From assembly GCA_050178385.1 (NCBI GenBank), contig JBFXGD010000015.1:1-39145 (forward strand): a stretch of 39,145 bases of DNA. The letters are read 5' to 3'. Below, in pieces: positions 1-7,226 of the stretch. The DNA comes from Calditrichaceae bacterium (lineage in GTDB: Bacteria; Calditrichota; Calditrichia; Calditrichales; JBFXGD01). The position numbers and the translations under genes were made by a program. How positions within the stretch are numbered: position 1 is the first letter of the stretch; every line of letters begins with the position of its first letter. The notes beneath the pieces were generated by a model. That model was given only the letters and a program-made list of their open reading frames with translations. It did no database searches and had not been told where the DNA came from.

Positions 1-50
1 ATGGCCGCTGCGAAAACGAAAGTTACGATTATTGCTGCAATCTTTTTCAT
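1..50 (-). CDS. Small secreted-peptide gene, paralog 2 (5' part only; runs off the left edge): MKKIAAIIVTFVFAAA...
   Basis: ATG at 50-48 preceded by AAGGAGTTATCAC, identical to the RBS region of the 105..260 gene. The translated N-terminus is clearly paralogous (MKKIAAIIVTFVFAAA vs MKKLASLIVAMVFAAA). Not in the ORF track. Confidence 0.8.
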   Translation of the reverse strand, partial: MKKIAAIIVTFVFAAA

Positions 51-273
51 GTGATAACTCCTTAATGCAATGTTTTTTGTGATTCTTTCAATTAACCGCT
101 TTGATTACGGTTTTGGGCGCGGGGGCGGAGGTAATGGAACAATAGTAGCGAATTCAGCGCCGGATCTTGGGCTTCCGTTTGTTGATGCGACGTCCACGGC
201 AGTAAAGACGATTGCCGCCGCGAATACCATTGCGACAATGAGGGAGGCTAACTTTTTCATGTGATAACTCCTT
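42..273. repeat. Exact 22-bp direct repeat CTTTTTCATGTGATAACTCCTT at 42-63 and 252-273 (period 210 bp), covering RBS and first codons of the two peptide genes
   Basis: Read directly from the sequence. Confidence 0.95.
105..260 (-). CDS. 51-aa secreted peptide precursor with Pro-rich C-terminus: MKKLASLIVAMVFAAAIVFTAVDVASTNGSPRSGAEFATIVPLPPPPRPKP
   Basis: Manual translation ATG(260)..TAA(105). Strong SD AAGGAG 7 nt upstream in an A/C-rich unstructured leader; classic Sec signal peptide (MKK + hydrophobic core); tandem paralog 210 bp downstream. Below the ORF-track length cutoff. Confidence 0.85.
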   Translation of the reverse strand: MKKLASLIVAMVFAAAIVFTAVDVASTNGSPRSGAEFATIVPLPPPPRPKP

Positions 274-370
274 GTGTGGTTGTGTGATATGTATTTATGC
301 GAAGAAAAGTACTTCCGTTAACAGGCGGCTGATAAAGGGACGTTGATAAATAGAAATGACAGGTCATTGA

Positions 371-609
371 TCAGATCTTCCTTACAGCAGTTCTGTAATT
401 TAAAGATCCATCTAAAATTGTAAGGCTTCCGTGCGGGGAACAGGTTTAATTGAATAAATTACCTGTTACTTGAATCGTCGCTGATTATTATCAGATTTTC
501 CTTACAGCGATTCTGCAATTAAAAGATCCTTCTAAAAATTTGTGCTTCCTTGCGGGGAACAGAATTAATGCAACAATTTACCTGTTGCTTAATTCATCTT
601 TGATTATTA
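371..609. repeat. Tandem imperfect direct repeat, two units (371-490, 491-609), about 80% identical, with conserved hairpins on the minus strand
   Basis: Manual alignment gives 96/120 identities. Shared blocks include TCAGAT.TTCCTTACAGC, CTTCC.TGCGGGGAACAG, TTACCTGTT and TGATTATTA. Confidence 0.92.
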
Positions 610-796
610 AATGAGTTGGGCTGACCGGAATAATACTGCAAATCCAAGTCCTGTTGTCATGAAATTCTGTGTGTGAGTAATTTTCCGGAAAATGGGACTG
701 AAGCATATGGCGGATTTCAGAAATGCAGGAGAATGTCTGAACGATCAGAAAGAAAAGTGATGTGGCGAATATAATGGGTTTCAGCAGTTCCCGCAT
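578..796 (-). CDS. 72-aa small protein with N-terminal signal/hydrophobic segment (possible lipobox TFSC); possible diverged member of the peptide cluster
   Basis: ORF track; GGAG upstream of the ATG (CCGGAGACAGGG-ATG); hydrophobic N-terminus; SIIPVSP resembles TIVPLPP of the 51-aa peptide; 3' end runs into repeat unit 2. Confidence 0.5.
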   Translation of the reverse strand: MRELLKPIIFATSLFFLIVQTFSCISEIRHMLQSHFPENYSHTEFHDNRTWICSIIPVSPTHLIIKDELSNR

Positions 797-850
797 CCCT
801 GTCTCCGGATGATTATCGAGAACCGTCCATGGATTAATTTGACTTCCTTG
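794..850 (-). promoter_or_regulatory. Three CsrA/RsmA-type CANGGANG motifs in the leader (843-850 CAAGGAAG, 824-831 CATGGACG, 794-801 CAGGGATG overlapping the start codon)
   Basis: Exact matches to the CANGGANG core on the minus strand; function is inferred. Confidence 0.5.
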
Positions 851-902
851 ATGAGCTCAGTTTGGCAGAAAAAACGGCAGATCTACGTAACTGATTTATA
901 AG

Positions 903-930
903 AATATAATTAATGTATGTGAAAATGCAA
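903..930 (-). promoter_or_regulatory. Putative sigma70-type promoter for the peptide cluster (TTGCAT-16 nt-TATATT)
   Basis: Same TTGnnn-16/17-TAnnnT pattern as found upstream of rpmE and lepA in this window; the AT-rich context lowers specificity. Confidence 0.45.
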
Positions 931-1050
931 TATATTTTAATATTATGTTTGACATTTTAAGCACAACTTTATGCGTATTAAATTCATTTATTGTTAGGCA
1001 CCTCAGGTAAAATATTGGTATAAATTTATTATTTTGTTAAATTTATACCG

Positions 1051-1572
1051 TTGAAAGGTTACTATCAGAAAATGGATCGATATGTGAAAAACAATGAGAA
1101 TATATACGTCAATCGGGTTTTTATAACAGGTTTTACGCTATTGACAATCTGGTTGCTCATGTTGTCTTTTGCACCGTTATTGATGGCCAGCGGTTTTCCT
1201 CCGGCAGGGTATGCGGCAACGATGATATATTTCTTAACCGACCCTGTTTGTCATCAACTGCCGGCAAGAAGTCTCTATATTTCAGGATTACCCATGCCTG
1301 TGTGCGCGCGTTGCTATTTTATCTATCTGGGGGGATGGATGGTGTTTCTGATTCCCGTATTTAGAAGGAAAATCAATTTTTGGAGTCATAGAATTTATTT
1401 GATCATGGGATTACTAATTTTAACGGAATTTGTTGTTGAAAAAACCGGTCTTTACCAAAACCCGACCGAGATAAGGATGATAGCTGGATTCTTACTGGGA
1501 ATACTGATATTCAGACTTATTATTGAAGCATTGTATTGGAATGAACAAAGAGGAACAGAGAAAAATGGATAA
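1051..1572 (+). CDS. DUF2085-family membrane protein (true start probably downstream of the TTG at 1051)
   Basis: Motifs CHQLPARS and MPVCARC..IYLG with several transmembrane segments. Confidence 0.8.
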   Translation: MKGYYQKMDRYVKNNENIYVNRVFITGFTLLTIWLLMLSFAPLLMASGFPPAGYAATMIYFLTDPVCHQLPARSLYISGLPMPVCARCYFIYLGGWMVFLIPVFRRKINFWSHRIYLIMGLLILTEFVVEKTGLYQNPTEIRMIAGFLLGILIFRLIIEALYWNEQRGTEKNG

Positions 1573-2059
1573 CAGGATTTTGTACCAGGGGGCAATTCTT
1601 GGCGGAACCGTAGCGGCTTTGACGGATGCCATGCCGTTGATAAATATGATAAATTGTCTTTGTTGTTTGGGGATTATATCCGGCGGAGTAGTGGCGGTTC
1701 TGTTTTATCGTAAAACGGCGGAACCTGAATACAGGGATCTGAATACGCCTTCCACCATACAGCTCGGGTTGATGGCAGGATTATTCGGGGCATTTATATC
1801 CTTTGGTCTGCAATATATCGTTTTTAAAATAATGGGGAACTGGCAGATAGAATTGCTGACAAATATGTTTGAAAATATGGATGACTTACCGGCTTTATGG
1901 GAAAATCTTTATCAAGAAATCCAGAAGGAAGAATACCAGGGGTTTGCGGGAATGGCTATATTAATCCGGTCGCTGATTATATTTCCTGTGTTTTCTCTGA
2001 TTGGCGCTCTGATCACAAAGCGTTTTATTGAAAGGAAATACAAGCCATCGGATAGCTAA
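1565..2059 (+). CDS. Conserved membrane protein with Cys-rich NCLCC motif (DUF4199-like), ~164 aa
   Basis: ATG at 1565 overlaps the upstream stop, suggesting coupling (track start 1523 is a TTG); about 4 TM helices with GxxxG motifs. Confidence 0.65.
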   Translation: MDNRILYQGAILGGTVAALTDAMPLINMINCLCCLGIISGGVVAVLFYRKTAEPEYRDLNTPSTIQLGLMAGLFGAFISFGLQYIVFKIMGNWQIELLTNMFENMDDLPALWENLYQEIQKEEYQGFAGMAILIRSLIIFPVFSLIGALITKRFIERKYKPSDS

Positions 2060-2067
2060 GATGGTTT

Positions 2068-3144
2068 CTATTTTTCTGCCGCCACCGCTTCGAGACGTTC
2101 AGAATGATAGGCGAGTCTTAATCCCTCCATCAGCTCGTAGATCTCACCCTCCATTACCCGGTCCAGTTTGTATAAAGTTAAGCCGATGCGATGGTCAGTG
2201 ACGCGGCCCTGAGGAAAATTGTAAGTTCTTATTTTAGCGCTTCTGTCACCGGAGCCAACCATTGATTTTCTCTGCGCGGCAATGGTACTGTTTTGCTCGG
2301 AAATGGCCTGATCCAGCAAGCGGCTGCGCAGCACTTTCAAAGCTTTCGTTTTGTTCTTTAGCTGAGATTTCTCATCCTGACAGGAAACTACAATTCCCGT
2401 GGGAATATGAGTGATACGTACGGCTGAATCGGTAGTATTGACGCTTTGACCGCCCGGTCCGCTTGACCTGAAAACATCAATTCTCAGTTCATTCGGATCG
2501 ATTTCAATGTCAACCTCCTCCGCCTCGGGCAAAACGACAACCGAAACCGCTGATGTATGAACCCGACCCTGAGTTTCGGTATCCGGAACACGCTGCACGC
2601 GATGCACGCCGCTTTCAAACTTGAGTGTACCATATGTGCTGTCGCCATCAATCGAGAAAATAATTTCTTTAAATCCGCCTCTTTCCGAAGGATTAGAATT
2701 CAGGATTTCAATTTTCAGGTTATTGGCTTCACAAAATTTAGTGTACATGCGGTAAAGATCCCCGGCGAATATAGCGGCTTCATCACCTCCCGTGCCTGCT
2801 CTGATTTCCATAATGGCATTTTTATGGTCATCCGGGTCCTTGGGTATCAGCAGCAACTTTAATTTTTCTTCGAACAGCTCAATCTGCCCCGACAATTCTT
2901 CCAGCTCCGCCTCCGCAAGCTCAATGAGTTCCGGGTCGTTTTCATCAGAAATTATACTCTGGTTGCCTTCATAATTGTTGAGAGCAATCAAGTATGGTTC
3001 TCCGAAATCAAGAATTTTTGAAAGTTCTCGATGTTCTCTCGCCAGATCTTTGTACCGCTTTTGATCATTATGGACATCAGGGTCAGAAAGCTGAATATTA
3101 AGTTTCTCGAATTTTTCTTTAATTTTAAGAATTTTATCTTTCAT
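2068..3144 (-). CDS. prfA: Peptide chain release factor 1
   Basis: [23 protein letters not shown] (PxT RF1 motif), [17 protein letters not shown] (GGQ), [15 protein letters not shown]. Confidence 0.98.
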
Positions 3145-4542: not shown

Positions 4543-5793
4543 TCAGGAACTCATAGAACGTAAAAATTCTTTGTTATTTTTTGTGTCACGCATTTTGTCA
4601 AGCAGGAATTCCATGCCTTCGATGATATTCATTTCATTAAGAAGTTTCCTTAATATCCAGATACGCGCCAGTTCTTCGCGGCTGAGCAGGAGCTCTTCTT
4701 TTCTGGTGCCCGATTTATTTATATCAATTGACGGGAAGAATCTTCGGTCGGACAAGCGTCGGTCAAGAACCAATTCCATATTGCCTGTTCCTTTGAATTC
4801 TTCAAAAATAACTTCATCCATTCTGGAGCCGGTGTCGATCAAAGCTGTGGCAATAATGGTAAGGCTGCCGCCTTCTTCGACGTTACGCGCAGATCCGAAG
4901 AATCGTTTTGGTTTTTGGAGCGCATTGGAATCAACACCGCCGGAGAGAATCTTGCCGCTGTGAGGAACAACCGTATTGTGAGCGCGAGCCAGACGGGTGA
5001 TGCTGTCGAGCAGAATCACAACGTCTTTTTTGTATTCTACAAGACGCTTGGCTTTCTCGAGCACCATATCCGCAACCTGAACGTGGCGTTCGGCGGGTTC
5101 ATCAAAAGTAGAACTGACTACTTCCGCATTTACCGAGCGTTCCATGTCGGTAACTTCTTCCGGACGTTCATCGATCAGCAGTACCATCAACTCAACTTCC
5201 GGCTGATTTTTTGTAATGGCATTAGCGATTTTCTGCAGAAGAATGGTTTTACCGGTTCGCGGCTGCGCAACTATCAGACCGCGCTGGCCTTTGCCGATGG
5301 GGGTCAATAAATTCATTATTCGTGTGGAATAGTCACTGCGGTCAGTCTCAAGTTCGATCCGTTGCAGAGGATATAGAGGTGTAAGGGTATCAAAAAGATT
5401 ACGTGATCTGGCTTTATCCGGGCTTTCAAAATTAACGGCTTCTACCCTTAAAAGCGCAAAGAAGCGTTCATTGTCCTTTGGAGGGCGGATCTGCCCACTG
5501 ACGGTATCTCCCGTTCTTAATCCGAATCTTTTTATTTGAGAAGGAGAAATATAGATATCATCCGGGCCGGGGAGATAGCTATAATTTTGTGATCGAAGGA
5601 ATCCGTAACCGTCCGGCAATATTTCAAGCACACCCTTCGAAAAGATTAATCCTTCCTGAGCCGTCTGCTCTTCCAAAATGCGAAATATCAATTCCGCTTT
5701 TTTCAGACCGGAAAATCCGGTTATATTCATATCTTGAGCAATCTTTGTCAGCTCAGTGATCTTTTTGTCCTTTAATTCTTCAATGTCTAACAT
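4543..5793 (-). CDS. rho: Transcription termination factor Rho (compact, 416 aa)
   Basis: [63 protein letters not shown]. Confidence 0.99.
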
Positions 5794-5936
5794 CAGGTAA
5801 ACCTTTCAATTTTGATAGAATAAATTGATTTCTGATTTCAATTCCAGTCTAATCGGATACTTTCTATATAAGGGAAAGAGTTATTAAATCAAGGTTTTAA
5901 AATAGAAATGTTCCTAAATTTAATCTTTGTTTAAAA

Positions 5937-7226
5937 TTAAGTCAAATTGAATTTATTTAAATATGGTCCTATTAAATAATGACTTCCGGCAACAAGCAGA
6001 ATATCATCTGCCTGTTGTTGTTTTTTTGAGAATTCGAACGCTTTGTGCAAATCTTTAATAAAATATGCGTTTTGATGGTTTTGTTTGAACAAATTGAATA
6101 GTGTGTCGCCATCCAATTTTCTGTCAGTTTCGGGTTCCGTTACAACTATCAGCCTCGCCTTCCCGGAAAGGTACTTTACGATATCCTCAAATTGTTTGTC
6201 CCGGACCAGTCCGAGCAAAAGCAGAAATTTTTCCGGAGCGACAAAATCCATTATAAAATCTATCGTCCTTTTGATCCCGTCCCTGTTATGGCTCACGTCA
6301 AAAATGATGCGGGGTTGCTTTTGCATGACTTGCAGCCTGCCTTCCCAGATGGATGACGCCAAAGAATCCCTGAATATTTTTTCTGAAAAATTAATGTTTC
6401 TTGAACTGAGAAAATTTCTGCTAACAAGATAAGCCAGGGCAATGTTGTTCAACTGAAAATTTCCAACCTGCCGGGTGTTTAAATTCCCAAACCTCTCCTG
6501 ATTTAATTTATCGCTTAAATCAAAAGTTGTGCCGTCCAGTGAAATATCTTTGATTTCACAGGTTACATGGTTTTTCAGCGCGAAAAATTTGTTTGATGGT
6601 TTTAGTCTCTCTTCTATATAATGAAATGTTTCATCATGTTGTTCCCCGGAAAATACAAATGCCTTGTCTTTAATAATTCCGGTTTTTTCAAAAACGATTT
6701 CTTTGAGTGTGTTGCCCAATTGTTTCTCATGATCGAAATCTATAGGGGTTAGAACAGCTATTTCAGAATTAACAAGATTGGTTGAATCAAGCCGGCCACC
6801 AAGTCCGGTCTCGATAACGGCCACATCCACCTGTTTGAACCTGAAATACTCAAACGCCAGGGCGGTAGTGGTGTCAAAGAATGTCGCCTGTCTTTTTAAT
6901 ACAAGTTCCTTAGTTTTGTCCCAAAAATCAATAATAAATTTTTTCTCTATTTTGATTCCATTGATCCTGATTCTCTCTCTGAAATCCACTAAATGGGGGC
7001 TGGTGAATAATCCGACTTTTAAGCCCATCGCCTGTAAAAAAGATGCGGTAAAATAGGATGTTGATCCTTTCCCGTTTGTTCCGGCAATGTGAATCACGGG
7101 ATAATCAAGATGTGGATTGGATAAAAAATCGCAAATGGCTTTTATATTCTCCAATCCTAGTTTGATCGCAAATTTTTGCAGATCATATAATTCTTCAATT
7201 GTAGTCGAATAAGGAGTTTTGTTCAC
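5937..7226 (-). CDS. folC: Folylpolyglutamate/dihydrofolate synthase
   Basis: IHIAGTNGKGS, FTSPHL, ETGLGGRLDSTN, DHEKQLG, DVSHN, GSHYLIG. Confidence 0.96.
   Translation of the reverse strand: MNKTPYSTTIEELYDLQKFAIKLGLENIKAICDFLSNPHLDYPVIHIAGTNGKGSTSYFTASFLQAMGLKVGLFTSPHLVDFRERIRINGIKIEKKFIIDFWDKTKELVLKRQATFFDTTTALAFEYFRFKQVDVAVIETGLGGRLDSTNLVNSEIAVLTPIDFDHEKQLGNTLKEIVFEKTGIIKDKAFVFSGEQHDETFHYIEERLKPSNKFFALKNHVTCEIKDISLDGTTFDLSDKLNQERFGNLNTRQVGNFQLNNIALAYLVSRNFLSSRNINFSEKIFRDSLASSIWEGRLQVMQKQPRIIFDVSHNRDGIKRTIDFIMDFVAPEKFLLLLGLVRDKQFEDIVKYLSGKARLIVVTEPETDRKLDGDTLFNLFKQNHQNAYFIKDLHKAFEFSKKQQQADDILLVAGSHYLIGPYLNKFNLT

Follow-up and report, generated by a model that had tools for sequence, protein, structure and literature searches.

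Candidate CsrA-binding sites in the leader and tandem repeats of a genus-specific small-protein operon of a Calditrichaceae bacterium

The contig JBFXGD010000015.1 of the Calditrichaceae bacterium assembly GCA_050178385.1, analysed at its full length of 39,145 nucleotides (nt) and hereafter called the window, carries at its left end a single minus-strand transcription unit for small proteins. This unit contains five exact copies of CANGGANG, a motif of the type recognised by CsrA, an RNA-binding protein. The original prediction for this DNA proposed that the unit is either under multi-site CsrA control or doubles as a CsrB/RsmZ-like sponge RNA. For comparison, we used a genome of the same genus (G001), which is ~81–86% identical and colinear across the whole window, and a metagenome contig (L021). 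Because G001 and L021 represent one lineage relative to the window, they effectively provide one comparison. The features of the locus, all on the minus strand, are listed below (ORF, open reading frame; SD, Shine-Dalgarno sequence; aa, amino acids).

895..923, minus strand: putative promoter-like block, TTCACA (923–918), 17 nt, TATAAA (900–895), read by eye
797..888, minus strand: 5′ leader of the operon, ~92 nt with putative limits, 72% identical to G001
843..850, minus strand: candidate CsrA-consensus site 1, CAAGGAAG, found by motif search
824..831, minus strand: candidate CsrA-consensus site 2, CATGGACG, 19 nt downstream of site 1, found by motif search
803..806, minus strand: GGAG, the SD that precedes the 72-codon gene, also conserved in both G001 and L021
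794..801, minus strand: candidate CsrA-consensus site 3, CAGGGATG, which includes the ATG start, 30 nt downstream of site 2
786..824, minus strand: predicted helix GGUUCUCG (824–817) / CGGGAACU (793–786), which encloses the SD and the start codon
578..796, minus strand: gene of a 72-aa orphan protein with a hydrophobic N-terminus
490..608, minus strand: tandem repeat copy B, 119 nt, with CAAGGAAG at 545–552 and ANGGA cores at 527–531 and 499–503
370..489, minus strand: tandem repeat copy A, 120 nt, with CACGGAAG at 426–433 and ANGGA cores at 407–411 and 379–383
261..369, minus strand: leader preceding the first peptide gene, which includes a degenerate and incomplete copy of the repeat retaining AACGGAAG (314–318), and the SD AAGGAG (269–273)
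105..260, minus strand: 51-aa pre-peptide gene, with a signal-peptide-like N-terminus followed by SPRSGAEFATIVPLPPPPRPKP
1..50, minus strand: second, paralogous peptide gene, of which only the start is present before the contig end

All five CANGGANG motifs and all of the ANGGA cores named in the original prediction are located on the sense strand of this unit. A motif search confirmed the former at 426–433, 545–552, 794–801, 824–831, and 843–850, and the latter at 314–318, 379–383, 407–411, 499–503, and 527–531 and in both peptide SDs (59–63 and 269–273). Three of the exact motifs form the leader arrangement, with start-to-start distances of 19 and 30 nt. The last of them (801–794) spans the ATG of the 72-codon ORF, which is located six bases past the GGAG, so that the overlap of a motif with this start codon was correctly predicted. 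The 72-codon ORF aligns to G001 and L021 without insertions or deletions; the differences are distributed as 4/9/26 over the three codon positions, and the ratio of nonsynonymous to synonymous divergence (dN/dS) is 0.22. The gene is therefore real, and its ATG is a true start. Upstream of the leader, the block 930–891, which contains the promoter-like TTCACA-17-TATAAA sequence, is nearly invariant between the window and G001, and the transcript putatively starts near 888. The promoter-like sequence was read by eye and was absent from the list of a consensus scan.

The 72-aa protein showed no Pfam family and no usable Atlas match, and its ORF is present in two of the 39 genomes of the order, namely the genome of the window (G000) and G001. 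There are at least two peptide genes in the window, where the contig end cuts the second, and three in G001 (L003 714–1285), and their tail SPRSGAEFATIVPLPPPPRPKP is invariant. The 51-aa peptide gave no Pfam match, and its Atlas matches were all under 0.8; a peptide profile returned only three clusters among 5.8 billion proteins, all of this genus. In the G001 counterpart, the three tandem peptide genes are followed by a terminator hairpin of −17.1 kcal/mol with a U-run (z −5.8). Eye-reading of the translated sequence places an ssb-like gene 3′ of this operon terminator. The operon appears to be genus-specific and probably encodes a 72-aa membrane protein, followed by tandem secreted proline-rich peptides. 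Upstream of and divergent from the operon, on the plus strand (1051–2059 of the window), genes for DUF2085 and DUF4199 membrane proteins are colinear and conserved in G001.

Every candidate site is retained in the orthologous loci of G001 and L021. At site 1, CAAGGAAG in the window corresponds to CAGGGAAG in both relatives, and only an N position of the motif differs. Site 2 reads CATGGACG in the window, CACGGAAG in G001, and CATGGAAG in L021, and site 3 (CAGGGATG) is identical in all three. Across the three leader sites, three of the six N positions changed relative to G001, compared with none of the 18 fixed positions. Among the triplets in the transcript's non-coding portions, GGA ranks first in conservation (12/12 vs 54% for all triplets), and those straddling the N positions are among the least conserved (CAA 3/14, CAT 1/7, AAG 5/14). 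As a control, we counted the other intergenic DNA of the window on either strand, where GGA was kept in 51/71 instances (34/51 outside SD zones) vs 60% for all triplets. The contrast between 12/12 and 51/71 (one-sided Fisher ~0.03, computed by hand) is real but modest.

The genome, which is 94% complete, contains one csrA gene. The encoded protein has 79 aa and matches the Pfam family CsrA (PF02599) with 86.5–86.8 bits. Its RNA-binding core (residues 1–53) gives gap-free alignments with solved CsrA structures, 1y00 of E. coli (E 1.4e-15) and 2bti, and R44, the role of which in CsrA is described in PMC7652899, is retained. Searches for FliW (PF02623) and flagellin (PF00669) gave no match in this genome. 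Throughout the order, csrA was found in 33 of the 39 genomes and fliW in none (0/39), and we know of no CsrA antagonist in this lineage. A literature search found no papers combining CsrA with Caldithrix. CsrA is widespread; according to PMC7652899 and PMC13443453, most of the characterised targets and antagonists come from Gammaproteobacteria and from a small number of lineages with FliW.

The two candidate sites downstream of the leader lie in the 119/120-nt tandem repeat, the unit of which begins within the 3′ end of the 72-codon gene (the first ~31 nt of copy B). The repeat is present in two copies in the window (370–608), three in G001 (L003 1381–1740), and four in L021 (1689–2167). Each copy holds one consensus site and two ANGGA cores, which corresponds to three GGAs per 120 nt or approximately one per 40 nt. 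All copies retain CA(C/A)GGAAG, and the last copy in both G001 and L021 has lost the third GGA. The whole repeat is nearly invariant across nine copies, and the repeats are 86% identical between the species despite a synonymous divergence (dS) of 0.59 in the adjacent gene; hence, constraint acts on the entire unit. It also contains the inverted repeats AACAGGT-N15-ACCTGTT and AGATCTT...AAGATCT. In three DNA read runs, only a second, G001-like strain was found, and additional contigs stack on the repeats, so that the assembled copy numbers may be under-counts.

The 120-nt unit is confined to this locus, as the region, queried by BLAST against the genome it comes from, returned only the self-match. 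A covariance model of the repeat (R1), searched against the 39 genomes of the order, matched only the two copies here and the three in G001. Wider searches with the repeat model, the 72-aa ORF, and the DNA of the region identified homologues only in G000 and G001 among 39 (41) genomes. Likewise, the scan of genome contigs for relatives found only G001, and the metagenome scan added one locus, L021. The possibility that the repeats are decayed copies of the peptide gene was rejected, because the unit starts within the 3′ end of the 72-codon gene and has no similarity to the peptide unit. Elsewhere in the same genome, G000:C93 at ~5620–5960 (L022 1620–1960, minus strand) contains approximately eight ~20-nt units with GGAGGGAAGG, followed by approximately seven with ACGGGAAGGG. 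These arrays lie inside a ~1.7-kb non-coding stretch rich in the heptamer repeats (AAGTAGG)n and (AAAAGAT)n, and related simple-repeat blocks are present at C50:19701–20200 and C10:31126–31625. Unlike these GGA-rich short-repeat arrays of C93, C50, and C10, the 120-nt unit is long, restricted to one locus, strongly conserved, and placed inside an operon.

A strand-specific sliding-window count over the genome found 1579 CANGGANG motifs in 2 × 3.89 Mb. This rate gives ~0.12 motifs per 600 nt on one strand, in line with the earlier estimate of well under one. The locus is the sole 600-nt window with at least four motifs (it has five). Seven other loci have three motifs per 600 nt and are all (7/7) in or across long ORFs; among the eight loci with three or more, this locus alone lies outside long ORFs. 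For ANGGA, the locus ranks within the top 0.19% of 74,270 windows. Over the whole 39-kb window, the total of 20 motifs is unremarkable compared with 15.1 ± 3.5 in shuffles, 12 of 100 of which reach 20. The conspicuous feature is how the motifs cluster locally on a single strand, not their total number.

Several observations weigh against CsrA control of this transcript, and those on motif number and sampling also favor a chance cluster, that is, a leader with three fortuitous matches, a fourth match doubled by duplication, and a conservation that merely reflects the short divergence within the genus. The 119/120-nt tandem duplication accounts for two of the five motifs, which derive from a single site. 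As an empirical null, we scanned the genome with 540 patterns of the shape XXNXXXNX that lie within ±10% of the genome frequency of the motif. At least five occurrences per 600 nt are reached somewhere by 14.3% of them, and a triple within 57 nt is present for 15.7%. With the duplication counted once, four motifs remain, a number reached by 57% of the null patterns. A search of the order (39 genomes) with the three-site pattern gave 12 matches vs 14 for its reversed control. The motif count by itself is weak evidence. The cluster is real and is the top locus of the genome by count, but the "strong excess" of the original prediction was overstated. Plain GGA is also of ordinary density (15 per 600 nt vs a genome mean of 10.1, standard deviation 4.3, only in the top 16%), and its conservation is somewhat above average in the other intergenic DNA, too. 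All of the comparisons are within one genus (2/39 genomes) and therefore offer no covariation and little independent sampling, and two of the twelve retained GGAs belong to SDs, whose conservation has a separate cause. However, fortuitous clusters are expected mostly in coding DNA, where the seven three-site loci are found. Additional weight comes from the position of the present cluster, since no other one sits on a leader's sense strand and touches a genuine start codon. The complete retention of GGA next to the poorly kept CAA, CAT, and AAG also speaks against coincidence, which we consider improbable. The remaining adverse points concern RNA structure and site preference. The unpaired probability of the GGAs is 0.01–0.48 vs a transcript mean of 0.49, and local 24-nt folds place GGA in a hairpin loop in 5/18 site instances vs 164/727 control positions. 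Short stems with hexaloops are the preferred form of a CsrA site (PMC7652899); site 2 of G001 takes this textbook form in its local fold, with a 4-bp stem AACC/GGUU and the hexaloop ACGGAA. Within the repeats, an upstream UUCC is able to pair with the GGAA. In addition, the CANGGANG consensus may not match the preference of the CsrA of this lineage.

The predicted pairing of most GGAs speaks for elements that are functional but not related to CsrA, such as a helix sequestering the ribosome-binding site (RBS), signals for RNA processing or stability, or sites of another RNA- or DNA-binding factor, for example the inverted repeats in each repeat copy, with CANGGANG being incidental. The helix GGUUCUCG/CGGGAACU around the SD and AUG is predicted for the leaders of both the window and G001, in the minimum-free-energy as well as the centroid fold, and could be an RBS-sequestering structure, but both arms are invariant and thus provide no covariation evidence. 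Moreover, the complete leader is no more stably folded than shuffled sequences (z +0.74 in the window and −0.23 in G001). Each repeat has two predicted hairpins, which may equally be inverted repeats acting as DNA, and the near-invariance of the unit extends over its entire length, beyond the GGAs. Consensus folding of the repeat gave a double change in 1/26 pairs, which is not a convincing compensatory change. We know of no factor apart from CsrA with a preference for CA-N-GGA-N-G, and while the N positions drift, the motif's constant letters (C, A, GGA, and G) are retained. On this evidence, a function unconnected with CsrA seems unlikely, although it keeps an appreciable share of the probability. 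The amplified 120-nt repeats might instead serve mainly as a CsrA decoy embedded in the mRNA, which would titrate CsrA in a lineage devoid of FliW and with no known Csr small RNA. The copy number varying among close relatives, the consensus site and two ANGGA cores in each copy, the conservation exceeding that of synonymous sites, the order-wide occurrence of csrA with no fliW, and the failure of two crude searches to find an RsmZ-like RNA in this genome are all in favor of a decoy. In contrast, the repeats have no promoter or terminator of their own, the first copy overlaps an ORF, the GGAs are sparse and outside predicted loops, one of them is lost in the last copy of the relatives, and no Rfam match was obtained. 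The only terminator-like hairpin near the repeats (588–570) is weak, specific to the window, and absent from G001, and the operon terminator is located 3′ of the peptide genes. Furthermore, an element found in 2/39 genomes cannot be the general CsrA antagonist of a lineage in which 33/39 genomes have csrA. The CsrB/RsmZ-like sponge of the original prediction therefore has little support, and a predominant decoy role of the repeats is very doubtful. The chance is similarly slim that the 120-nt module serves as a CsrA-binding cassette open to amplification, with a copy number (2, 3, or 4) that would tune free CsrA in Calditrichota-like bacteria possessing csrA but no FliW, flagellin, or recognizable Csr small RNA.

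Multi-site repression of the mRNA by CsrA is, in our opinion, the best single explanation, and we put it forward tentatively, at slightly less than an even chance. This half of the original prediction is strengthened by the presence of csrA, the classical leader layout, and the conservation of the sites, and is weakened by the overstated motif excess. In the proposed mechanism, the CsrA of this genome would repress translation of the minus-strand mRNA of the operon. A CsrA dimer bound to sites in the ~92-nt leader would bridge to the site over the start codon, beside the SD, and thereby block ribosome loading on the 72-codon gene. The bridging range of the CsrA dimer is 10–63 nt in the description of PMC7652899, and the leader spacings of 19 and 30 nt fall within it. 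The consensus sites of the repeats and the peptide leader, together with flanking ANGGA cores, may extend CsrA occupancy toward the peptide genes.

If the leader is bound, CsrA would be tied to how an uncultured lineage makes its secreted peptides. The leader is a compact RNA of ~100 nt with three consensus sites and could serve to probe such a CsrA for canonical specificity. If the cassette idea were true, it would be the first CsrA antagonist proposed for the phylum, as well as an operon-internal decoy whose evolution proceeds by tandem duplication. Should CsrA not bind, the 120-nt repeat, strongly conserved as it is, stays a functional element without explanation.

We also searched for canonical sponge RNAs. 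An Rfam scan of window positions 1–3000 (E <= 10) gave only three chance matches, two to small nucleolar RNA families and one to a long non-coding RNA region. Among 108 non-coding terminator-upstream regions counted elsewhere in the genome, none had more than three ANGGA. The RsmZ model (RF00166) yielded only sub-threshold matches across the order, as it did in 9/14 control genomes. Its best matches in G000 and G001 are 3′ ends of genes with terminators and are therefore spurious.

Several loci outside the operon have similar motifs. In G002, the intergenic locus C1:789217–789263 (L026 1455–1552, minus strand) has three CANGGANG sites in ~100 nt followed by a GC-rich terminator. Its sites can form the mini-hairpins GC-AGGGAA-GC and UC-ACGGAU-GA, and it scores 23.2 bits (E 0.035) against the Rfam model PrrB_RsmZ (RF00166), below the cut-off of 44. 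In G007, the intergenic locus C2:108648–108726 (L029 ~1500–1640, plus strand) has four CANGGANG sites, hexaloop hairpins AAC-AAGGAA-GUU and GCUC-AAGGAU-GAGC, and, 3′ of the sites, a terminator GTCGCTCC...GGAGCGAC with a T-run. BLAST found no relatives of either locus in the order, and the G007 locus was not found in the congener G017. Both loci come from families of the order other than that of the window; they look like RsmZ-type small RNAs and are presented as leads only. A further lead is G000:C83:14190–14275 (L036 1190–1275, plus strand), a short non-coding stretch in which AAACAAGGATGT, ACGGAAT, and AATGGATT precede a terminator (GCCGGTC/GACCGGC), with a transfer RNA (tRNA) gene immediately downstream. 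Its conservation in G001 is 88%, with the GGA cores kept and N positions changed (CAAGGATG to CACGGAAG). The stretch is limited to the genus by BLAST and may be a small RNA with CsrA-type sites. Finally, G004:C15:3421–3476 (L024 ~1490–1560, minus strand) is a 9-nt tandem array of CACGGATGA-like units with five CANGGANG in 56 nt, which adjoins an apparent tRNA gene on the opposite strand.

The operon can be compared with three kinds of known Csr targets and antagonists. Like the sponge RNAs CsrB/CsrC and RsmX/Y/Z (RF00018, RF00166), it contains repeated units with a CANGGANG-type site, and the number of units varies among relatives. Unlike them, it has no separate small RNA gene and no terminator at the repeats, the GGAs are outside predicted loops, and the element occurs in one genus only. 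The GGA density of this locus is about half that of the sponges or less. The Salmonella fim leader belongs to an mRNA that doubles as a CsrA titrator. The flaA mRNA of Campylobacter jejuni is another such mRNA, as described in PMC4894983. Binding and titration have been shown for both, whereas here they are conceivable from sequence alone; as in those cases, a coding transcript with several candidate CsrA sites could additionally sequester CsrA in a setting for which no Csr small RNA is known. The third kind is represented by the E. coli glgC leader, which has four CsrA sites, one of which, in a hairpin loop, tethers a dimer that bridges to the SD (PMC7652899). The present operon differs in its Calditrichaceae-like host, which has no fliW or flagellin matches, in its orphan small-protein products, in the lack of predicted loop presentation of the GGAs, in the extra sites within intercistronic tandem repeats, and in being known solely from its sequence. 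Nevertheless, it shares with glgC-type leaders several GGA-consensus sites in a short leader, spacings within 10–63 nt, a csrA gene in the same genome, and a most downstream site over the ribosome-binding region.

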